A stretch of 64,000 nucleotides of DNA. It comes from an uncultured Bacilli bacterium. GTDB lineage: Bacteria; Bacillota_I; Bacilli_A; RF39; UBA660. Shown one piece after another: positions 1-48,053 of this stretch. Under the pieces are notes generated by a model. It was not told the origin of the DNA. It did no database searches and saw only the letters and a list, made by a program, of their open reading frames with translations. Made by a program: the position numbers and the translations under genes. Every line of letters starts with the position of its first letter. Within the stretch, counting starts at the first letter, position 1. Location of the stretch: NCBI GenBank assembly GCA_944363785.1, contig CALVVF010000003.1, forward strand, positions 7,011 through 71,010, in the 5' to 3' direction.

Positions 1-58
1 AATAAACAAGATTTAGCTAGCTTGTTTTTTCCTAGTTCCATCTTTATTAGACTCCTCT

Positions 59-889
59 CTATTTGTCTTCCTTATCATAATCATCTAAAAAATTATACTC
101 AAAATCTTTTCGATGGTAACCAATAATCGTATCGAGGTTCACATTAAAAGCACTTTTAAAAATATTATTTTCGATGTATGGATTATCTTTTTTTAATTCA
201 GCGATTAAATGTTTAATCACTAAGCGTTTACTGTTTAAATTCTGATCATTATTTTCGGCCGTAAATTTACAGGCACAATTTAAAAATTCTAACTGATGAT
301 ATTTGGCAAAAGAAATAATGTCTTTTTCTCGGACATAATATAATGGTCGAATCAGCTCCATCCCTTTAAAATTCGTACTGTGTAGTTTAGGCATCATCGT
401 TTTAAATTCTCCCCCATAAATGGTACTAAGAAGGATAGTTTCCATGACATCATCATAATGATGACCTAAAGCGATTTTATTACAGCCTAGTTCTTGAGCT
501 TTACTATACAATGTACCTCTACGCATCCTTGCACATAAATAACAAGGAGACTGTTCTATTTTTTCTACTGCTTGAAAAATATCGCTCTCTACTATGGTAA
601 TAGGAATGGCTAAAGTTTTCGCATTCTCTTCAATTTTTCTTCTGTTTTCTTTAGTATAACCAGGATCCATGACTAAAAAAACTAGCTCAAACTTTATTTT
701 GCCATGTCTTTGAATTTCTTGCATACATTTAGCTAGTATATAAGAGTCTTTTCCCCCTGACATACAGACGGCAATTTTGTCATTTTCTTGGATCATTTCG
801 AACTCTTTTACCCCTTTGACAAACTTTGCCCAGATATCTTTTCTATATTTGGTAATTAAACTATTTTCAATTACTTGATATTTTTCCAT
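59..889 (-). CDS. ttcA: tRNA 2-thiocytidine(32) synthetase TtcA (PP-loop ATPase)
   Basis: The SGGKDS PP-loop and the motifs CYLCARMRRGTLY, IALGHHYDD and GGEFKTMMPKL align colinearly with E. coli TtcA. Confidence 0.85.
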   Translation of the reverse strand: MEKYQVIENSLITKYRKDIWAKFVKGVKEFEMIQENDKIAVCMSGGKDSYILAKCMQEIQRHGKIKFELVFLVMDPGYTKENRRKIEENAKTLAIPITIVESDIFQAVEKIEQSPCYLCARMRRGTLYSKAQELGCNKIALGHHYDDVMETILLSTIYGGEFKTMMPKLHSTNFKGMELIRPLYYVREKDIISFAKYHQLEFLNCACKFTAENNDQNLNSKRLVIKHLIAELKKDNPYIENNIFKSAFNVNLDTIIGYHRKDFEYNFLDDYDKEDK

Positions 890-1039
890 ATTTACTCCCT
901 TTTCGCCTTTTTATTTTAACATTTTTTAGTTAGAAAAGAAAGCACTTTTTATAACACAAAAAACCAACTTTTTTTCGGTTAAATCTCGTTTCTTAAGAAA
1001 CTGTTTAATCTTTATAGTTGGTTTTCTTTTTTCCTATTT

Positions 1040-2170
1040 TTATTCTTCTACTTTAGTCAAAGTAACATCTGCAGTTCTTACTTTACCATCACGATTATAA
1101 GTAAGTTGGACCGTATCTCCTACTTCATATTGATATAACTGGTAACGTAAATAAGCAGCATTACTAACTGATTTTCCATTTACGGCAGTAATGACATCCC
1201 CTACACGTAATCCAGCTTTATCAGCTCCACTACCTGAAGTAATTCCGACAATAACTACTCCTTCTTCGATATCAGAGTCTATTCTAATATTATATTGATA
1301 CAAACGATAACTATCTGTTACATTTAACATACTAATTCCAATTAATGGACGTTCGATTGCTTTACCTGATTCTAATTCATCGACATATTTCATTGCATAT
1401 TCGATAGGAATAGCGAATCCCATACCTTCGATTTCATCTTCTACTAATTTTAAAGAATTGATTCCGATTACTTCGCCATTAACATTAACTAGTGGTCCAC
1501 CACTATTTCCTGGGTTGATTGCGGCATCTACTTGTAAAACATTCATTACCCAATCACTTGTTGAATCAACACTGACAGTTACCATACGATTTTTACCTGA
1601 TAAAGTTCCTTTGGTTACTGTACCACGATATTCATAACCAATTGGAGTACCAACAGTAAATACGGTATCTCCTACATTAGATTCTTCACTATTTCCGATT
1701 TTAGCTACTTGTTTTACTAACTCGCCATCAATTCTAACAACGGCTAAATCCATATAACGATCGCTACCTAATACTGTACCTTTTACTTGATCATCACTAG
1801 ATAATGTAACAAGTAATTCATCTGCACCGTCAACTACGTGATGATTAGTTAGAATATAAGCATACTTACTATCTTCATCTTTCTTATAGATAAACCCACT
1901 TCCTGAAGAAGTTAATCTTCCATTTTGGTAATTCTGTAATGTTACTGTAGCATCGTATATTTCTCCTACGGCAGGAGCAATTCCCGTCTCATCAATAGTA
2001 ATATCTGAATTACACTTTACAACACCCGTTGTATTGGTTGTTTGATTACTAATCATATTACTTTCCTTAATCTCATCCTGCATAAAATAATACGTTGTGA
2101 ACCCTCCGGCACCACCGGCTACAGCTACTACTAAAAGAACACTTAAAAACTTTACTAATTTTTCTCTCAT
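1040..2170 (-). CDS. htrA: HtrA/DegP-family serine protease with N-terminal membrane anchor and C-terminal PDZ domain
   Basis: The catalytic triad is present as TNHHVV (His), DLAVVRI (Asp) and GNSGGPLVN (Ser). The start was moved to the ATG at 2170, which has the RBS GAAGGTGGAAGA; this removes a 13-aa extension from the track ORF. Confidence 0.85.
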   Translation of the reverse strand: MREKLVKFLSVLLVVAVAGGAGGFTTYYFMQDEIKESNMISNQTTNTTGVVKCNSDITIDETGIAPAVGEIYDATVTLQNYQNGRLTSSGSGFIYKKDEDSKYAYILTNHHVVDGADELLVTLSSDDQVKGTVLGSDRYMDLAVVRIDGELVKQVAKIGNSEESNVGDTVFTVGTPIGYEYRGTVTKGTLSGKNRMVTVSVDSTSDWVMNVLQVDAAINPGNSGGPLVNVNGEVIGINSLKLVEDEIEGMGFAIPIEYAMKYVDELESGKAIERPLIGISMLNVTDSYRLYQYNIRIDSDIEEGVVIVGITSGSGADKAGLRVGDVITAVNGKSVSNAAYLRYQLYQYEVGDTVQLTYNRDGKVRTADVTLTKVEE

Positions 2171-3129
2171 TCTTCCACCTTCTTTGTTATATTTGCTAAT
2201 TCTTGCCAATTGACAGGAAAGCCCATTCTTGTTAATACTTTATCCACTGTAATCGTTTTTAGATTGTATTCTAAATTTTCTAAAATATGTTTGATTTCTT
2301 CAGTTAGATTTTTAAATTCCGTTTCTGTTAATAACTGTTTAATAATTATCACAAGGGCAAAGATGTCATTTATACCTTGTACATACTCACCTTCTACCTT
2401 TTCTAGTTTTAATAACTTATGGTAGACGGTTTCCTCTAGATGTCGTTGAGTCCTATTTTCGAATACAATATCCTCATGTGCACACAAATTACGATAATTG
2501 GCTAAGATTGGTAAATAATTCTGTAGTGTCTCTGCATCGATCCCATAGACTTCAGCAATACTGTCTTGATCTTCTCGCTTTAGAACTGAATAGAGTTCAC
2601 CAACAATCCCAAAAGACAACACTTTAACTAAAACCCATAGGGGAATATAACCATAATTATTTACATAGTGCATAGTAGCTGCATGCTGAGGAGCATTTAT
2701 CCGAACCTGACGTTTCATTTTTTTTATTAAGTCATTCACTTGTCTGGATTTTTGAGGTATATGAGTGAAATTTCTTGCTTTTAGATAATCACTTTCTTTA
2801 TAACCATATTTTTTAGATAATTGGTAAGCGATAATCGATTTTATACTATTCTCAATAATTAATAAATTCTTAAAAATAATATTACGAAATGCTCGATCGA
2901 ATAAAAATAAACTATATACTTCTTCAAACGTAGTTCCTTCTATAAATCTTTTCTCATTTGCCGATTTTAGAAATAAGTGACGATAACCGTTTAGAAAAAA
3001 ATAGTTTTCTCGTAGTAAAACTCTTTTGGCATAAGTCTTATCTTCGATCTTTAAGCCTTTATATTCTAAGATCGTAATTTGCTCATCTAATGTTTTAAAA
3101 TTCTTATCAAAAGCCATACCACTCATCAC
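2167..3129 (-). CDS. Abi_2-family abortive-infection protein (AbiD/AbiF-like)
   Basis: The N-terminus TLDEQITILEYKGLKI..LLRENYFFLNGY and the later YRNLCAHEDIVFEN motif match the Abi_2 signature (Q-I-ELLK-RGL and LRN-CAH--RLWN). The stop TGA overlaps the htrA ATG, reading ATGA. Confidence 0.7.
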   Translation of the reverse strand: MMSGMAFDKNFKTLDEQITILEYKGLKIEDKTYAKRVLLRENYFFLNGYRHLFLKSANEKRFIEGTTFEEVYSLFLFDRAFRNIIFKNLLIIENSIKSIIAYQLSKKYGYKESDYLKARNFTHIPQKSRQVNDLIKKMKRQVRINAPQHAATMHYVNNYGYIPLWVLVKVLSFGIVGELYSVLKREDQDSIAEVYGIDAETLQNYLPILANYRNLCAHEDIVFENRTQRHLEETVYHKLLKLEKVEGEYVQGINDIFALVIIIKQLLTETEFKNLTEEIKHILENLEYNLKTITVDKVLTRMGFPVNWQELANITKKVEE

Positions 3130-3302
3130 CTACCATAAATTATACCACACAAATTATGTAAATTGTATGAAAAAATTGTGAAAAAATATGGGGAAAAATG
3201 GGAAAGAATAACTAAGAAATTTAGCTAGTATTTTTCATACTAATTTTGTTCTTGTTTTACATATATTATAATAAATGATATAATTTTTTTGGATGTGATG
3301 TT

Positions 3303-4283
3303 ATGGCTAGCAGTATTACCCATGCCTATTTTGCAATGGATGTTTATGATCGATTAAGTATTAAAAGTAAAGAACTATTAGTAGAACATAAAGAACTATT
3401 TAAAACCGCAGCTCAAAGTATGGATGTCTTATTTTTTTATAATCTTACCAATTTAAAAAAGGGTAAAAAGATGCGTGATTTTGGTTCTTATTTTCATCGT
3501 CATAAAAGTTATGACTTTTTTTCTACCTTAGTCAATTATATTAAATATAATCACTATCAATATCATCCCGAAGTTATTGCTTTTCTCTATGGTATGTTAA
3601 GTCACTATGTATTAGATTCAACGATACATCCTTATGTTATTTATCGAACGGGAGAATATAATAAACAGGATAAATCCACATATCGTTATAATCAATTACA
3701 TGGGGAAATGGAATCTTACTTTGACAACTATTTGGTTATGATTAGAGAGCATATGAGGCCATATAAGTTCAAGTGTCATGAATTCTGTTTCAATGTCAAT
3801 ACACTTAGTCCTGAACTTATCGAAGTAATGGATTTTACTTATCGAGAAGTATTTGGAATAGATAAATTTCATACTTATTATTTAAAAGCTATCTCTCAAA
3901 TGCGCTTTTTTTTCCGAGTATTTCGTTATGATCCAACGGGATGGAAACGATTAAGTTTTTCATTAATTGATTTAGTTTGTCCTAAAAGTTTACTTCGTAA
4001 AGCTCCCCTTTCTTATCATATGAAAATGGGAAACTATAAATGGTTTTTAAATCTAGAACATAAAAAATGGTATAATCCAACAGATAAGAGAACAAGTAGT
4101 AGTAAATCTTTATTAGAATTATATAGTGAAAGTTTAGCTAAAACAACAGAGATGATCAATGAGATCAATCAGTTCTTTTATTACGATAAGAAAATAAACT
4201 TGAAAAAAGTTTTATCTAATCGCAGTTATGTTACTGGAAAAGATTGTAGTAAAAATAAAGAATTAAAATACTTTGAGTTTTAA
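3303..4283 (+). CDS. putative zinc-dependent phospholipase C-family protein (His/Asp-rich metal-binding motifs)
   Basis: The ITHAYFAMD N-terminus plus the FGSYFHRH and HYVLDSTIHPYV motifs resemble the PLC/P1-nuclease-like metal-site pattern. This is a weak, memory-based assignment. Confidence 0.35.
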   Translation: MASSITHAYFAMDVYDRLSIKSKELLVEHKELFKTAAQSMDVLFFYNLTNLKKGKKMRDFGSYFHRHKSYDFFSTLVNYIKYNHYQYHPEVIAFLYGMLSHYVLDSTIHPYVIYRTGEYNKQDKSTYRYNQLHGEMESYFDNYLVMIREHMRPYKFKCHEFCFNVNTLSPELIEVMDFTYREVFGIDKFHTYYLKAISQMRFFFRVFRYDPTGWKRLSFSLIDLVCPKSLLRKAPLSYHMKMGNYKWFLNLEHKKWYNPTDKRTSSSKSLLELYSESLAKTTEMINEINQFFYYDKKINLKKVLSNRSYVTGKDCSKNKELKYFEF

Positions 4284-4353
4284 AGTTTTAATTCTTTTTT
4301 GTTTAATCTGTATGTTTTTTTTAAATCATCTAATACTAGTATTAGGTGATGAT

Positions 4354-5442
4354 ATGTTTTATAAATATTTAATGGTTAATGTAGAAGGTAAAGATGTTTT
4401 ATATTTATATTTAAATAATAAAGAAGAGTATGCCAGTGAATTTATTTTTCAACGTCATGAGAGGGAACCAGTTGAATTATACCGGAAGATTTCTCACTAT
4501 GTGGATAATATGGGAATTGATTTTTCTGGGAATATGATCTATGTCGTCGTTAATGATATTGTGGTAGTCTCTTTAGATTTAAGTAATTATGATAAAAGAA
4601 ATGATCGGTTAGTAGAGATCATTGGGGTTGAGAGTGGGTTAAGTAATAAGTTCATCGATTTAGATCGAAGTAGTGGTATCATCGAACGTTTAAAAATGGA
4701 TGATTATATTTTTGGAGTAGTCTCTGGGGAAATGCCCGCTGTATTTCATGATGAAACATTAAAAGCACAGGCTGTAATTGCTAGAACTTATGCTTCTAAA
4801 CGATTGAGTAAAGGTTTAAAAATCAAAGACTATAATGCAGTACAAATCTATCGTGATAAAAATTATTTAAAAGAAATTTGGGGAAATCATTATGATGAAT
4901 ATACTCAGAAAATAAAAAAGGCAATTAAAGATACTGAAAACGAGGTTCTTATGTTTGATGGAGATTATATTGATGTCTACTATCATTTATCTAGTAATGG
5001 TAAAACTGAGGATTCTAGTAATGTTTTGAAACTTGCTTATCCTTATTTAGTCAGCGTATCTAGTTTTTTTGATACTGATCGTAATTCAGTGAGTAGAAGA
5101 ATTGTACCTAACGACTATCTTAGTAAATTATTACAAGTTGAGATCACTAAAGATACTCCTGTTGAAATCTTAGTAAAAACAATTGGTCATCGAGTAAAAT
5201 ATATTAAATTTCAAGATAAAGTGTTTGATGGATTAATTTTAGCTAGAAGACTTGGATTAAACTCTAATGACTTTAGTATTAGTATTGAAGATGATTATAC
5301 AACTTTTACTACTCGTGGACATGGACATGGATTAGGTCTTAGTAAATATGGAGCTGAGGGAATGGCTAAAGCAGGCTACTCTTATCGGCAAATTTTAGAA
5401 CACTATTATCCAAATACCTATTTACAAAAAGAAGTGAAATAG
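4354..5442 (+). CDS. spoIID: SpoIID/LytB-domain protein (sporulation lytic transglycosylase-like)
   Basis: ETLKAQAVIARTYASKRL is the SpoIID/LytB signature. The track ORF starts at TTG 4273, inside the upstream gene. The ATG at 4354 has the RBS AGGTGATGAT, although the 4273 start would add a TM-like N-terminus. Confidence 0.7.
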   Translation: MFYKYLMVNVEGKDVLYLYLNNKEEYASEFIFQRHEREPVELYRKISHYVDNMGIDFSGNMIYVVVNDIVVVSLDLSNYDKRNDRLVEIIGVESGLSNKFIDLDRSSGIIERLKMDDYIFGVVSGEMPAVFHDETLKAQAVIARTYASKRLSKGLKIKDYNAVQIYRDKNYLKEIWGNHYDEYTQKIKKAIKDTENEVLMFDGDYIDVYYHLSSNGKTEDSSNVLKLAYPYLVSVSSFFDTDRNSVSRRIVPNDYLSKLLQVEITKDTPVEILVKTIGHRVKYIKFQDKVFDGLILARRLGLNSNDFSISIEDDYTTFTTRGHGHGLGLSKYGAEGMAKAGYSYRQILEHYYPNTYLQKEVK

Positions 5443-5494
5443 CATTAATGGTTAGTGTTTTTCTTTGGTTATTATTTTGGAAACAAATAAATAA

Positions 5495-5521
5495 GTAGTA
5501 TGCTTACTTTAACATACTACT
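5495..5521. terminator. bidirectional hairpin between convergent spoIID-like and htpG genes
   Basis: AGTAGTATG..CATACTACT is an inverted repeat. Confidence 0.45.
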
Positions 5522-5579
5522 CATTGGTTTATTCTATACTTTTCTTAGAGGAAGAATAGTGAATGATCATTATTCTTTT

Positions 5580-7463
5580 TTATTTTGAAATTACTTCACA
5601 GACTAGATTACTAATTTCAGTTGGATTTGTAATTGGAAGTCCTTCAATTAATCTAGCTTGAGCATATAATATTTTTGTATAATTTTCTAGTTCTTCTTTA
5701 TTATTTTGATATAAATCTTTTAACTTTTCAGCAATTGGGTGATTAGCATTAATTTCCATCACTGTAGTTGCTTTTACTTTTTCATCAGTTGGCATTGCAT
5801 TGATTACTTTTTCCATCTCTAAAGAAATTGCTCCTTCTGATGTTAAGCATACTGGATGGTTCTTTAGACGGTTGGTAAATCTGACATCTTGGATTTCTGT
5901 TTTTAAGGCTTCTTTCATACTTGCAAACATATCTTTAGCTTCTTCATTTTGTTTTTTCAAACTTTCTTTTTCTTCTTCAGTATCTAAATCTAGGTTATCT
6001 GTACTGACATTGACAAATTTTTTATTGTCGTATTCCGTTAATGTTTGCATAACGAATTCATCTACATAATCCGTTAGGTATAGAATTTCATAACCTTTAT
6101 CTTTTACTTTTTCTACTTGTGGAAGATCATCGATCTTATCTACAGTTTCTCCACAAGCATAATAAATTTTATCTTGGTTTTCTTTCATTCTAGAAATATA
6201 TTCTTTAAAAGTAACCATTTTCTTTTCTGTTGAAGAATAGAAAATCATTAAATCCTTTAATTTATCTTTATCTAATCCATAATTGTTGTAAATACCAAAT
6301 TTCAATTGCATACCGAAAGCTTTAAAGAATTTTTCATAATTGTCACGATCATTTTCTAGTAGATCAACTAACTCACTTTTAATTTTCTTTTCTATTGTTT
6401 TGGCAATTAATTGTAGTTTACGATCTTGTTGAAGCATTTCTCGAGAAATATTTAAAGATAAATCATCGCTATCTACTAAACCTTTTACAAAGCTAAAATA
6501 ATCAGGTAATAGATCTCCACATTTTTCCATGATCATTACTCCGTTTGCGTAAAGAGTTAAGCCTTTTTCAAATTCTTTAGAGTAATAGTCATAAGAAGCA
6601 TGACTAGGTATATAGAGTAAGGCATGGTAACTGCATTGTCCTTCAACAAAAGTATGAATGGTACGAAGTGGTTCTTCATAATCAAAGAATTTTTCTTGAT
6701 AGAAACGGTTATAATCTTCTTGTTTTAAATCCTTTTTATTTTTCTTCCAAATAGGAATCATACTGTTTAAAGTTTCTTCTTCGATATGAGACTCATATTC
6801 ATCTTTAGATCCTTCTTTTAAATGGCGATGTTCAATATCCATTTTAATTGGATAACGAATATAGTCTGAATATTTTTTGACAATTCCTTGAATACGGTAT
6901 GTCTCTAGAAACTCACTATATTTTTCTTCTTCGGTATCTTCTTTTATTTTTAGGATAATTGTAGTTCCTACTTCTTCTTTTTCACATTCTTCTATTGTAT
7001 ATCCATCTGCACCTTTAGATACCCAACAGTAGGCTTTATCACTATCTATTGATTTACTAATTACACTAACTTGTTCACTAACCATAAATGCTGAGTAGAA
7101 TCCGACACCGAATTGACCAATAATATCGATATCTTTTTTCTTTTCTGCTGTTTCTTTAAAAGCAAGTGATCCACTTTGGGCGATGGTACCTAGGTTATTT
7201 TCTAATTCTTCTAAGGTCATACCACAACCATTATCACTGATTGAAAGTTCTCTCTTTTCTTTATCAAGAGCTAACTTTATTTCTAAAGAATCTCTTTTTA
7301 CTTTGATCTTTTTATCTGTTAAAGATCGATAATATAATTTATCAATCGCATCACTAGCATTAGATATTAATTCTCGTAAGAAAATTTCTTTATTTGTATA
7401 AATCGAATGAATCATTAAATCTAAAAGTTTCTTGGATTCCGCTTTAAATTGTTTCTTTTTCAT
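5580..7463 (-). CDS. htpG: molecular chaperone HtpG (Hsp90)
   Basis: The IFLRELISNASDAIDKL ATPase motif is present, the protein is 627 aa, and it is colinear with HtpG. Confidence 0.95.
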   Translation of the reverse strand: MKKKQFKAESKKLLDLMIHSIYTNKEIFLRELISNASDAIDKLYYRSLTDKKIKVKRDSLEIKLALDKEKRELSISDNGCGMTLEELENNLGTIAQSGSLAFKETAEKKKDIDIIGQFGVGFYSAFMVSEQVSVISKSIDSDKAYCWVSKGADGYTIEECEKEEVGTTIILKIKEDTEEEKYSEFLETYRIQGIVKKYSDYIRYPIKMDIEHRHLKEGSKDEYESHIEEETLNSMIPIWKKNKKDLKQEDYNRFYQEKFFDYEEPLRTIHTFVEGQCSYHALLYIPSHASYDYYSKEFEKGLTLYANGVMIMEKCGDLLPDYFSFVKGLVDSDDLSLNISREMLQQDRKLQLIAKTIEKKIKSELVDLLENDRDNYEKFFKAFGMQLKFGIYNNYGLDKDKLKDLMIFYSSTEKKMVTFKEYISRMKENQDKIYYACGETVDKIDDLPQVEKVKDKGYEILYLTDYVDEFVMQTLTEYDNKKFVNVSTDNLDLDTEEEKESLKKQNEEAKDMFASMKEALKTEIQDVRFTNRLKNHPVCLTSEGAISLEMEKVINAMPTDEKVKATTVMEINANHPIAEKLKDLYQNNKEELENYTKILYAQARLIEGLPITNPTEISNLVCEVISK

Positions 7464-8624: not shown

Positions 8625-8873
8625 TTAATCTCCACCAAAAATATCAAATATCTCTCCTAGAAAAGACTCTCTTTTTCTTCCACCTTCTCGATAATTATCT
8701 TTGTCTTTCTTACTTTTTTGTGGAGTTGTTTCTTCTCTTTCTTCATGGTTCATTAGCTTTTCTAATTCACCACGATCTAACCAAATTCCTCTACATTCTG
8801 GGCAATAGTCAATTTCAACACCACGTTTTTCAGACATTAATAATGTTACATCTTTACATACTGGACATTTCAT
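8625..8873 (-). CDS. zinc-ribbon (zf-TFIIB-like) domain protein
   Basis: It has paired CPxC motifs (MKCPVCK..DYCPECRGIWLD). The start is set at the ATG 8873, which has the RBS GAGGAGG; the track ORF had a 20-aa extension. Confidence 0.65.
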   Translation of the reverse strand: MKCPVCKDVTLLMSEKRGVEIDYCPECRGIWLDRGELEKLMNHEEREETTPQKSKKDKDNYREGGRKRESFLGEIFDIFGGD

Positions 8874-9089
8874 ATTTTTCCTCCTCTGTTGTATTATATC
8901 ATATTCTTTATTTTTAAGTAATTTTCTTTCCAATCTTCTATCATTTTTTTCCTATTCATTCTAAATTATAAACTATCTTTCTAATAAGTAGGTATCTACT
9001 AAAAAGGAGAACAACTTTTAATATTCGTTTTTCGCATAAAAACAAGTATGCATGATTGGCATACTATAGAATATTGAATGGTGATAATG

Positions 9090-10660: not shown

Positions 10661-11416
10661 ATGATTTATTTTATTATTTATGAAGATGTTTGTTTATCTT
10701 CTTCGATTTATCAGTCAGTTATTCATCAATTCTTGGGGAGCAATAAAAGAAAAAATTATTGTATTTTTACCTGTAAAGATTATAGTGAATTTAAGAAACT
10801 ACATATTGATCAACTAGATGGAATTAAAATTTTTATTTTTGATGTTGAAGTTCCTGGAAAAAATGGACTTGATTTAGCTAGAGAGATTCGTCTACGTGGT
10901 GATGTCTTTAGTCAGATTATTTTATTGTCTGACTTTGATCATTATCAACATAGTCAGTTTACCAAACGAACATTTGCATTAGATTTTCTTTCTAAGAAAG
11001 CGGATGATTTTAAATCTTTACTTCTAGAAACACTCAATACCGCTTATTCCTATTCAACTGAACATTATTGTTTTTCTTTTTTGTCCGATGGAGATATATT
11101 ACAAGTACCTTATCGAAATATTTTATATTTTGAAAAAAGATCAAATGATAATGTAACTATTCTTCATACGACAGGTCATCATTCTTATCCTATTTGTAGT
11201 AGTTTAATTACGATTGAGAAGAAACTACAACAAGATCCTAGATTTTTTAGAAGTCATCGTAGTTGTATTGTTAATCTTTTTAATATTGATACAGTAAATT
11301 TCCGTACAAATACAATTTTATTTAAAACTAGTCAAGAGTCTATTCATCAATTAATCGCCCGTGATAGACGACATGCCTTAAAAGAAAAGTTAACTAATAA
11401 TAAAATTCTATCTTAG
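10661..11416 (+). CDS. AgrA/LytR-type response regulator (receiver plus LytTR DNA-binding domain), orphan
   Basis: IFIFDVEVPGKNGLDLAREIR and RFFRSHRSCIVNL are colinear with AgrA. No histidine kinase is adjacent. Confidence 0.8.
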   Translation: MIYFIIYEDVCLSSSIYQSVIHQFLGSNKRKNYCIFTCKDYSEFKKLHIDQLDGIKIFIFDVEVPGKNGLDLAREIRLRGDVFSQIILLSDFDHYQHSQFTKRTFALDFLSKKADDFKSLLLETLNTAYSYSTEHYCFSFLSDGDILQVPYRNILYFEKRSNDNVTILHTTGHHSYPICSSLITIEKKLQQDPRFFRSHRSCIVNLFNIDTVNFRTNTILFKTSQESIHQLIARDRRHALKEKLTNNKILS

Positions 11417-33244: not shown

Positions 33245-33366
33245 TTTGAATCCTCCCTTCGCCTATATCTAGTATAGACATGCTCCGTGTAAATAACCTG
33301 ATTCCAGTTAACAACTTAACCCGGTGTATCAGCAACCTTACACATCTAAGCAGCCACACGCCTAAG

Positions 33367-37593: not shown

Positions 37594-37630
37594 AAGAAAA
37601 GGTGTAGCTTTATAGGTTACACCTTTTATT
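37594..37630. terminator. bidirectional hairpin between GNAT (+) and spo0A (-)
   Basis: AAAGGTGTA-N11-TACACCTTT. Confidence 0.5.
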
Positions 37631-38399
37631 TACAGTAATCTTTTTGAAATTCCAATCGTAGTTTGTCAGCGACAGTAACAATGAATTCGGAATTGGTTGG
37701 TTTGGCTTTATCAATATCGACACTATGGCCAAATATCTCTTCCATTAAATCCCAATCCCCACGATTCCAACTCACCTCGATCGCATGACGAATGGCTCTT
37801 TCGACCCGAGAAACGGTCGTATTAAATTTTTTCGCAATATCTGGATATAATTCCTTGGTAATGCCACCAATTACTTCTGGTCGCTCATAGAGAATAGAAA
37901 TTCCTTCTCTGATATATTGATATCCCTTTATATGGGATGGTATTCCTAATTCATGTAATATTTTAGTAATCGAAATCTGTAAGTTATTATGGTAAATATC
38001 GATTGAAGCATTGCTGTAGGTTTTACTATCGGTACAATCTTCTATTCTTCGTTCTAGATCAGATAATTCAAACGGCTTTAAGATGAAATAATTAATTCCA
38101 TACTCAGATACTCTTCTAATCATCTCTTGTGCATTATAAGATGTTAGTACAATTACCTTCTTATCGATCTGTTCTTTTCTCATACTCTCTAGGATAGAGA
38201 GTCCATCTTTTTTCGGCATAATCAAGTCTAAGATGATGACATCATACTCGTTTTGCCTTGTTTTAATTAATTCTAAACCTCTTTCTCCATCATTTGCTTC
38301 TAATACTAATTCGATATTAGCGTGATCTTTAAAGTACTCCTTAATCATGCTTACTAGGTCGACATTATCATCGATCATCAGTACTCTGACTTTATTCAT
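37626..38399 (-). CDS. spo0A: sporulation master regulator Spo0A (receiver plus Spo0A_C)
   Basis: The receiver has [12 protein letters not shown]. The C-terminus [58 protein letters not shown] is diagnostic of Spo0A. Confidence 0.9.
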
Positions 38400-47477: not shown

Positions 47478-48053
47478 ATGAGTTTAGTTCCTATTGTCAT
47501 AGACAAAGAAAGTAATGGTGAAAGAAGTTACGATATTTTTTCTAGACTACTTAAGAATAGAATTATTTTATTAAGTGGTGAAATTAACGATAGTACTTCG
47601 GATTCTGTTGTTGCTCAACTACTCTACTTAGATTCTTTAAATCACGAGGATATCAGTCTTTATATCAATAGTCCTGGGGGTTCTATTTCCAGTGGGATGG
47701 CGATATACGATACGATGAATTTTGTTAAAAGTAAGGTATCGACAATCTGTATAGGTATGGCTGCAAGTATGGCTGCTTTTCTTTTATCATCTGGAGAAAA
47801 AGGTAAACGTTTTATCTTACCAAATGCCGAGGTCATGATTCATCAACCTTTAGGGGGAGCTCAGGGGCAAGCAACGGAAATTAAGATTGCTGCCGAACAT
47901 ATTTTAAAAGTAAAAAAGAGAATGAATACCATCCTTGCTGATAATACCGGCCAAGAAATTGAGACTATTGAAAAAGATACTGAAAGGGATAATTTTATGG
48001 ATAGTAGGGAGGCGCTTAATTATGGTATCGTCGATCAAATTATTAGTAATTAG
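47478..48053 (+). CDS. clpP: ATP-dependent Clp protease proteolytic subunit
   Basis: The Ser-His-Asp triad context is [16 protein letters not shown]. Confidence 0.95.

Follow-up and report, generated by a model that had tools for sequence, protein, structure and literature searches.

In a 64,000-nucleotide (nt) stretch of contig CALVVF010000003.1 from an uncultured Bacilli bacterium (positions 7,011 to 71,010 of the forward strand, assembly GCA_944363785.1), hereafter called the window, a gene of the Abi_2 family (abi) directly precedes a gene coding for an HtrA-type serine protease (htrA). The data are best explained by a bicistronic operon, made up of a promoter, abi and htrA, which has been vertically inherited across a large lineage of gut 'Bacilli', uncultured and low in GC, and this architecture of the locus is held with high confidence. 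Direct support comes from the identities of the genes, the fold of Abi and the conservation of its active site, the layout of the locus, a linkage that is both broad and specific, purifying selection, and the lack of an abiF RNA motif and of an mRNA leader.

Conservation and specificity of the abi-htrA pair

Two open reading frames (ORFs) were found on the minus strand between positions 3129 and 1040, abi and then htrA. The features of the pair are the following.

2167..3117, minus strand: abi, Abi_2 / AbiD-F family HEPN protein, 316 amino acids (aa) from the ATG at 3117 (ORF reading, hidden Markov models (HMMs), fold)
1040..2170, minus strand: htrA, S1C serine protease of 376 aa, anchored in the membrane and carrying a single PDZ domain (HMMs, hydropathy)
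2167..2170, minus strand: ATGA stop/start overlap of abi and htrA (read directly from the sequence)
2175..2181, minus strand: Shine-Dalgarno (SD)-like AAGGTGG for htrA, within the 3' end of abi (sequence; AAGGTGGAAGAATGA recurs at many loci)
958..1027, minus strand: possible hairpin followed by a U-rich stretch, 3' of htrA, a weak operon-terminator candidate (minimum free energy -16.3 kcal/mol, z = -2.9)

The linkage was followed in a species-level set containing one genome per species (GTDB representatives), in which the best 80 loci of at least 380 relatives were kept, with Abi identities of 63-92%. A same-strand HtrA gene was located directly downstream of abi in 79 of these best 80 loci, all of which belong to uncultured 'Bacilli', 'Tenericutes' or 'Erysipelotrichaceae' metagenome-assembled genomes (MAGs), including Candidatus (Ca.) Scybalousia and Ca. 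Faecenecus. The only exception (L062, 5995-7661) carries a predicted membrane protein of 217 aa in place of HtrA, after a gap of 56 nt, suggesting that abi can persist without htrA in cis. The databases hold thousands of Abi relatives, of which the best 120 (69-99% identity, 311-323 aa) come from gut-type MAGs. In three relatives (L001-L010 context groups), three differing neighbourhoods were seen and HtrA was next to Abi each time, with a 4-nt overlap or a gap of 0. The pair was also kept in a distant branch (L171-L175, 53% identity), where the junctions measure -4, -1 or +9 nt and the flanking genes are new, Amidase_3 upstream and UvrD or PcsB downstream. Across the loci, the genes beyond htrA fell into 42 clusters among 71 loci. 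Upstream of abi, a divergent Zn-dependent phospholipase-C-like gene (57 of 77 loci) and SpoIID (43 of 75) were common, not universal, and the larger block formed by these two genes and abi-htrA is often conserved.

The specificity of the pairing was assessed with 80 metagenomic Abi_2 loci as control. HtrA was found downstream at the three loci whose product is about 60% identical to the window Abi, and at none of the 77 loci of other subfamilies (22-37% identity). In the reverse test, four HtrA homologues (65-70% identity) chosen regardless of Abi were all preceded by an Abi_2 gene with a 4-nt overlap. In a library of representatives at 50% identity, the subfamily corresponds to a single full-length cluster (P0121; 53% identity, 370 bits), beyond which the next Abi_2 representatives drop to at most 41% identity (223 bits). 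A survey of 7,828 complete genomes had described Abi_2 genes as patchy within species and enriched beside mobilome and defence genes (PMC12373285). These results agree with a first-pass annotation of the window, in which the arrangement was considered unusual for an Abi_2 gene: the adjacency is conserved in relatives, in the distant branch and when starting from HtrA, and it is atypical for the family as a whole. It lies well beyond chance. An accidental adjacency of functionally unrelated genes could invoke the frequency of 4-base overlaps in compact low-GC genomes; it is refuted by the comparative data, since 79 of 80 species retain the pair, as does the branch at 53% identity, despite differing flanks, and since it is missing from all 77 other Abi_2 loci and was recovered at all four loci selected through HtrA. 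We give it next to no credence.

Direct reading of the sequence placed the abi stop codon TGA at 2169..2167 and the htrA ATG at 2170..2168, so that the overlap of these two same-strand genes is as first annotated. The minus-strand junction sequence in the window is AAGGTGGAAGAATGAGAGAAAAA, and its coding-strand reading is AAGGTGGAAGAATGAGAGAA. Among 80 abi-htrA pairs (79 species loci and the window), 64 junctions are overlapping, by 1, 4, 8, 11, 14, 17, 20, 23 or 29 nt, 13 are gaps of 0-9 nt, and the remaining 3 have ambiguous start calls, each with an ATG at -8. The tight junction is retained across at least 10 different configurations, and its preserved trait appears to be closeness, not a single inherited sequence. 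The two genes would be transcribed on one mRNA, and translation of htrA is probably coupled to that of abi. The terminator scan made no call at the hairpin found downstream of htrA.

The abi ORF had been listed as 2167..3129 (minus strand), giving 320 aa when counted from the GTG at 3129. This ORF exists and contains the three peptides quoted for it in the first-pass annotation. The true start, however, is most likely the ATG at 3117..3115 (MAFDKNFK, 316 aa), because the GTG sits within a conserved AGGTGA SD sequence (3131..3126) and all homologues start 5-9 nt past this SD; the GTG was rejected on these grounds. Concerning htrA, the MREK start is the conserved one among homologous loci, and the longer TTG start at 2209 given in the ORF listing is not conserved in them.

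Abi is better conserved than its partner. Pairwise identities over 78 species average 70.4% for Abi versus 55.3% for HtrA, Abi being higher in 98.8% of pairs, and 111 of 316 Abi positions (both HEPN motifs included) are at least 98% conserved versus 47 of 376 in HtrA. In 12 closer pairs, the ratio of nonsynonymous to synonymous substitution rates (dN/dS, Nei-Gojobori) ranges from 0.02 to 0.17 (about 0.04) for abi and from 0.07 to 0.17 (about 0.1) for htrA, and is lower for abi in 10 of the 12. The base composition of abi (GC 30.2%, GC at third codon positions (GC3) 23.7%) falls within the range of the window (32.2±3.3% and 22.2±3.7%), and the nearest Abi_2 proteins of phages and plasmids share no more than 31% identity with Abi. 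The neighbours of abi-htrA are housekeeping genes and not those of a prophage, plasmid or defence island; the window itself is core chromosome, with a ribosomal-protein cluster and its S10 leader, HtpG, ClpP, Spo0A and TIM. A recent horizontal transfer of abi was ruled out by the host-like composition and the low identity to mobile homologues. The earlier proposal that the gene had simply landed in the htrA promoter region, if taken to mean a recent and neutral event, is not supported in view of this composition, a dN/dS of about 0.04, a conservation exceeding that of htrA and the depth of the clade. The data do fit an insertion that took place long ago behind a stress promoter of the htrA type, with later domestication of the gene.

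The same measures bear on a passive retention of abi. A toxic gene inserted once could have been kept with no benefit to the host, either as its deletion would cost htrA the promoter and the coupling or through an addiction resembling that of toxin-antitoxin (TA) modules. The promoter does lie upstream of abi, no conserved promoter is obvious for htrA itself, and TA modules typically show stop/start overlap. A mere spacer would decay, yet Abi keeps both HEPN motifs and 111 positions almost unchanged, and dN/dS stays between 0.02 and 0.17. Moreover, no antitoxin candidate is at hand, as no noncoding RNA (ncRNA) was found and HtrA is extracytoplasmic with a cytoplasmic tail of 4-7 aa, and abi persists without htrA in L062. 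This explanation is considered very improbable.

Abi, HtrA and their promoter

The residues and segments on which the protein analysis relies are listed below; residue numbers of Abi are those of the 320-aa ORF.

2476..2493, minus strand: HEPN catalytic motif R213-N-L-C-A-H218 (Rx4H) of Abi (alignment)
2683..2703, minus strand: second HEPN-like motif R143-I-N-A-P-Q-H149 (Rx5H) of Abi (alignment)
2087-2158, minus strand: HtrA membrane anchor, aa 5-28 (hydropathy, maximum at aa 5-24, MREK before it)
1838-1840, 1748-1750 and 1502-1504, minus strand: HtrA catalytic triad H111, D141 and S223, respectively (at least 98% conserved)

The Abi_2 identity first assigned to the gene was upheld by an HMM search, which matched Pfam Abi_2 (PF07751) with E=2.3e-43 and 149.1 bits for a cut-off of 25.6 (aa 37-223, profile positions 2-183 of 184). 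The PADLOC AbiD profile was matched over aa 9-313 (profile 5-276 of 277) with E=2.2e-60 and 202.7 bits. The subfamily profile matched one entry of the PDB, 8vz6 'Abi family protein' (E=4.5e-20). The AlphaFold2 model of Abi is all-helical, with a predicted local distance difference test score (pLDDT) of 86.5 and a predicted template modelling score (pTM) of 0.83, and its sole significant Foldseek match was 8vz6_A 'PbAbiF dimer bound to ncRNA' (E=5.4e-11, template modelling (TM) scores 0.66/0.70, 22% identity), Cas13d chains trailing in the list at non-significant E values of about 0.5-1.4. In the 78 species, R213, N214, C216, A217, H218, E219 and D220 are at least 98% conserved, and the RNSCCH of PbAbiF falls on R213-N-L-C-A-H218 in the 8vz6 sequence alignment. 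In the second motif, N145, Q148 and H149 reach at least 98% in the same species and R143 at least 90% in another alignment of the subfamily. The toxicity of C. difficile AbiF requires the Rx4H pair R202/H207 and is abolished by its mutation (PMC12373285). R213/H218 should be the counterpart of this AbiFCd pair, as judged from the shared Rx4H motif and similar position rather than from an alignment with AbiFCd. Sequence and model are compatible with an AbiF-fold HEPN protein having an intact Rx4H site, which would act as a ribonuclease on presumed RNA targets. Fusions of Abi_2 with a protease were sought among long Abi_2 representatives and none was found, RyR domains or unannotated extensions being present instead. 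Among other Abi_2 subfamilies (P0157, P0232, P0244), one protein combines Abi_2 with a RyR domain (406 aa), and two fusion proteins of 773-807 aa have about 480 C-terminal aa with no Pfam match.

HtrA contains Trypsin_2 (3.2e-29) and PDZ_2 (2.2e-18) Pfam domains. It matched TIGR02037 (1.4e-79, 268 bits) and the S. pneumoniae-type HtrA model NF053637 (1.1e-78, 264.9 bits) below their equivalog cut-offs of 416 and 650, respectively, and aligned with the 394-position S. pneumoniae-type model from aa 3 to 374 of 376 (model positions 9-389). The window protein is therefore a family-level member only, and not an NCBIfam equivalog. Its predicted topology consists of a 4-7 aa cytoplasmic tail (MREK), a single N-terminal anchor and an acidic extracytoplasmic body with the protease and PDZ domains. 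Abi has neither signal peptide nor membrane segment, its sole hydrophobic stretch being a conserved core helix also found in soluble PbAbiF. The two proteins are thus predicted to act in different compartments, which makes co-expression likelier than physical partnership, and direct proteolysis of or by the partner unlikely in this genome. The suggestion that HtrA would serve as effector or partner of Abi, degrading envelope proteins during an abortive response, is not favoured by this topology, since HtrA would be extracytoplasmic and Abi cytoplasmic. In some HtrA orthologues (L065 and L072 at about 6956-7300, L091-L093), the N terminus is extended by about 100 aa or the cytoplasmic tail is long and rich in Lys/Glu, unlike the short tail of the window protein. 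These regions, not conserved among relatives, are possible lineage-specific sites of cytoplasmic interaction.

Upstream of abi, the following elements were identified.

3126..3131, minus strand: abi SD sequence AGGTGA, beginning 7 nt past the -10 hexamer (alignment)
3139..3147, minus strand: extended -10 element TGGTATAAT (TGnTATAAT) (sequence reading)
3155..3184, minus strand: three direct octamers in 11-bp phase, overlapping the abi -35 region, TTTTCACA at 3184..3177, TTTTCATA at 3173..3166 and TTTACATA at 3162..3155

In AbiF type III TA systems, the HEPN site is blocked by an ncRNA encoded upstream (PMC13064643); that of C. difficile forms a leader of 168 nt which contains two Rfam abiF motifs and shares a transcript with abiF (PMC12373285). 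The abiF motif (RF03085) was absent from 3050-3350 at E<=10, from 1-6000 at E<=5, and from the whole window and 11 related loci at the gathering threshold. In the positive control, phage phiC2, both abiF motifs upstream of abiF were matched, with 37.6 and 19.5 bits. Sixteen gut-metagenome Abi_2 loci of other subfamilies (within L094-L159) also gave no RF03085 match at the gathering threshold; many Abi_2 genes either use RNAs beyond the Rfam abiF model or lack such RNAs. The geometry of the promoter is a stronger argument against an ncRNA antitoxin than the Rfam negative, and the decisive one. In a set of 81 species-level sequences (80 loci and the window), the SD begins 7 nt after the -10 in 61 sequences and the -10 is followed by the start codon at a distance of 15-22 nt, a spacing too short for a 5' ncRNA and leaving essentially no leader. 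The promoter of the divergent phospholipase-C-like gene must also fit into the 173-nt intergenic region (3130-3302), and the aligned promoters showed no conservation upstream of about -60. The abi mRNA would begin at, or a few nt from, the ribosome-binding site (3126-3147), corresponding to an unusually short and strongly conserved leader.

These observations also concern the possibility that Abi regulates its own operon at the RNA level, by binding or cleaving the abi-htrA mRNA or another specific transcript and thereby setting HtrA levels, through a feedback between protein and RNA that would derive from the AbiF-ncRNA interaction. In its favour, AbiF proteins recognise a particular structured RNA and down-regulate their own synthesis (PMC12373285), the 35% of positions that are extremely conserved in Abi hint at a dedicated macromolecular partner, and the linkage with htrA is strict. 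On the other side, no abiF-like motif was found in 1-6000, there is no leader, the junction sequences vary so widely among species that no conserved cis RNA element is evident, and L062 keeps Abi without a downstream htrA. Such an autoregulation is therefore judged quite improbable.

The extended -10 element is present in all 81 sequences, whatever the upstream gene, and no good TTGACA is found at canonical spacing in the abi promoter of the window. The tandem octamer pattern (TTTTCAYA boxes) is unique within the 64 kb, where 0.11 occurrence is expected by chance. Relative to the extended -10, boxes are found at -37/-36, -26/-25 and -15 in 47, 52 and 21 of the 81 sequences, respectively, and the information profile of the promoters displays 11-bp periodic T-rich blocks. 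The octamer TTTTCACA is given as the canonical B. subtilis CssR box (PMC6749698), and the CssR secretion-stress regulon of B. subtilis controls htrA and htrB (PMC6749698; PMC12826053). The first window box is identical to this canonical box and the two others are near-copies, the box being known from B. subtilis only. The octamers are candidate binding sites for a presumed response regulator of the OmpR family, and the CssR-like promoter is to be taken as a lead, not a demonstration.

Role and surroundings of the operon

The role of chromosomal Abi_2 copies has been stated as unknown (PMC12373285). For the abi-htrA operon we infer a physiological role in which Abi is a domesticated HEPN RNase, co-expressed with HtrA and linked to stress; this full account, inferred function included, is put forward tentatively, as possible rather than probable. 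An Abi_2 gene would have been captured in ancient times between an htrA-type stress promoter and htrA, and then domesticated. Envelope or secretion stress would switch the promoter on, HtrA would clear misfolded exported proteins outside the membrane, and the HEPN RNase would cut intracellular RNA (mRNA, rRNA or tRNA), so that translation would be slowed or reshaped. Its toxicity would be restrained by transcriptional control or by a narrowed substrate specificity, and not by an RNA antitoxin. A narrower version, in which the coupled operon is a two-arm stress response whose AbiF-derived RNase cuts mRNA/rRNA to ease the secretory/translational load beside the HtrA protease, is decidedly unlikely to be correct in all its terms.

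The main rival explanation is a true two-gene anti-phage system, where an AbiF-like RNase, still acting as abortive-infection effector, would be made together with HtrA from a promoter responding to envelope stress. The trigger would be phage adsorption, the injection of DNA or envelope damage by holin/endolysin, the RNase would halt translation and abort infection, and HtrA would cope with the damage or sense it. By sequence and fold, Abi falls within the AbiD/F group, whose studied members are all anti-phage toxins, and its catalytic HEPN residues are intact. Trypsin-like protease domains are known in defence systems (PADLOC domain-level matches of HtrA, E=1e-16 to 1e-7), and transcriptional triggering could stand in for the absent ncRNA antitoxin. 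Defence genes are, however, normally patchy, mobile and fast-evolving, whereas abi sits among housekeeping genes, is kept in 79 of 80 species loci, has a dN/dS of about 0.04 and outconserves HtrA. It has no close relatives on phages or plasmids, and HtrA is a full-length, housekeeping-type, membrane-anchored protein and not a cytoplasmic defence protease. An anti-phage role is thus regarded as unlikely, although it carries more weight than any other alternative.

Several points weigh against the domesticated, stress-linked RNase. All the genomes are uncultured MAGs, and a core-like, highly conserved distribution does not alone exclude a defence role. The TTTTCAYA boxes are T-rich in a genome of 68% AT and were seen in no more than about 50-60% of loci, with none evident in the distant branch (L171, L174); they could alternatively be UP-element-like T-tracts or the sites of another OmpR-family regulator, and their complement resembles WalR TGTWAH repeats. 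Within the 64-kb window, neither an OmpR-type regulator nor CssRS genes were found, the response regulators present being one of the LytTR type and Spo0A only. The translational coupling would not be obligatory because htrA carries its own SD. Finally, the Rfam negative is weak alone because the sixteen other gut Abi_2 loci likewise lack a gathering-level match, and a divergent ncRNA may be encoded elsewhere, the Rfam model missing some Abi_2 RNAs.

Around the operon, the divergent genes upstream of abi code for the Zn-dependent phospholipase-C-like protein (3303-4283, plus strand) and for a SpoIID-like protein (4273-5442, plus strand), and overlap by 11 nt. Elsewhere in the window are genes for Spo0A (37626-38399, minus strand), a LytTR-type response regulator (10661-11416, plus strand) and ClpP (47478-48053, plus strand), together with an S10-Clostridia ribosomal leader (33259-33356, minus strand) beside the large ribosomal-protein cluster at about 13-33 kb. 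The host is a low-GC (31.6%) member of the Bacillota retaining sporulation regulators. A 102-aa ORF (8625-8933, minus strand) has two CxxC pairs (CPVCK...CPEC) resembling a zinc ribbon, followed by a Lys/Glu-rich tail. At two related loci, mobile-type genes were found a few kb downstream of htrA: a group-II-intron-type reverse transcriptase and Mob_Pre in L174 (8843-10933), and an integrase and a SymE-like toxin past a tRNA in L005 (10715-11918). These loci mark the region downstream of the operon as an insertion hotspot, while the operon stays intact.

Comparison with known systems

Few predicted defence genes are more abundant than those of Abi_2/AbiD-F proteins, the proposed ancestors of Cas13. 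The present subfamily breaks the rules of the family, with no RNA antitoxin found, no mobility, a conservation at or above housekeeping level and HtrA as operon partner. It offers a concrete and testable case either of a toxin domesticated into host physiology or of a defence gene hard-wired to envelope stress, a natural AbiF variant tolerated without an RNA inhibitor, and, for a large group of gut bacteria that are abundant but uncultured, an undescribed addition to their htrA stress operon. If the proposed role is true, it would document a type III toxin that lost its RNA antitoxin and turned into a core physiological enzyme, and would provide a bacterial counterpart of regulated stress-dependent RNA decay, functionally analogous to Ire1 and regulated Ire1-dependent decay (RIDD).

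Ire1 and RNase L, with their KEN domain of the HEPN superfamily, are eukaryotic HEPN-type RNases tied to protein-folding or secretory stress. Their likeness to Abi is an analogy only: no relation of sequence or domain architecture exists beyond the HEPN superfamily, and the window Abi has no sensor, kinase or membrane segment. AbiD/F and Cas13d have been placed in one lineage (PMC13064643). Cas13 of type VI CRISPR systems is a distant structural echo only, as the window Abi has the size of a single domain, is accompanied by neither CRISPR array nor guide RNA and gave non-significant Foldseek matches.

The B. subtilis CssRS regulon of htrA and htrB resembles the window locus in having a membrane-anchored HtrA of Gram-positive type behind a promoter with TTTTCACA-type boxes. 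In contrast to the window htrA, however, no Abi/HEPN gene precedes htrA or htrB in B. subtilis, and such a neighbour goes unmentioned in a 2025 review of the htrA loci of Gram-positive bacteria (PMC12826053). Literature searches on Abi_2, HEPN or 'Abi family protein' with HtrA or serine protease returned nothing relevant, and the accessible part of the supplements of the C. difficile AbiF survey gave no enrichment of HtrA or trypsin beside abi_2. The components belong to known families, and their combination in a core, antitoxin-free, HtrA-coupled gene more conserved than HtrA was not found in the literature searched.

The closest known systems are the type III TA anti-phage systems of AbiF, AbiD and AbiD1 (for example PbAbiF, and AbiFCd-RCd22 of C. 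difficile), with which the window Abi shares the family, the all-helical fold, a size of about 300-320 aa and the Rx4H motif, at an identity of only 22-31% to characterised or mobile members. The AbiD/F systems have an upstream ncRNA antitoxin in a leader of about 100-170 nt, whereas the window abi has no leader and no abiF motif was found for it. They are patchy, with mobilome or defence neighbours (PMC12373285), whereas the window abi is vertically inherited among housekeeping neighbours and is more conserved than HtrA. Lastly, it differs from all of these systems by having HtrA as a fixed operon partner.

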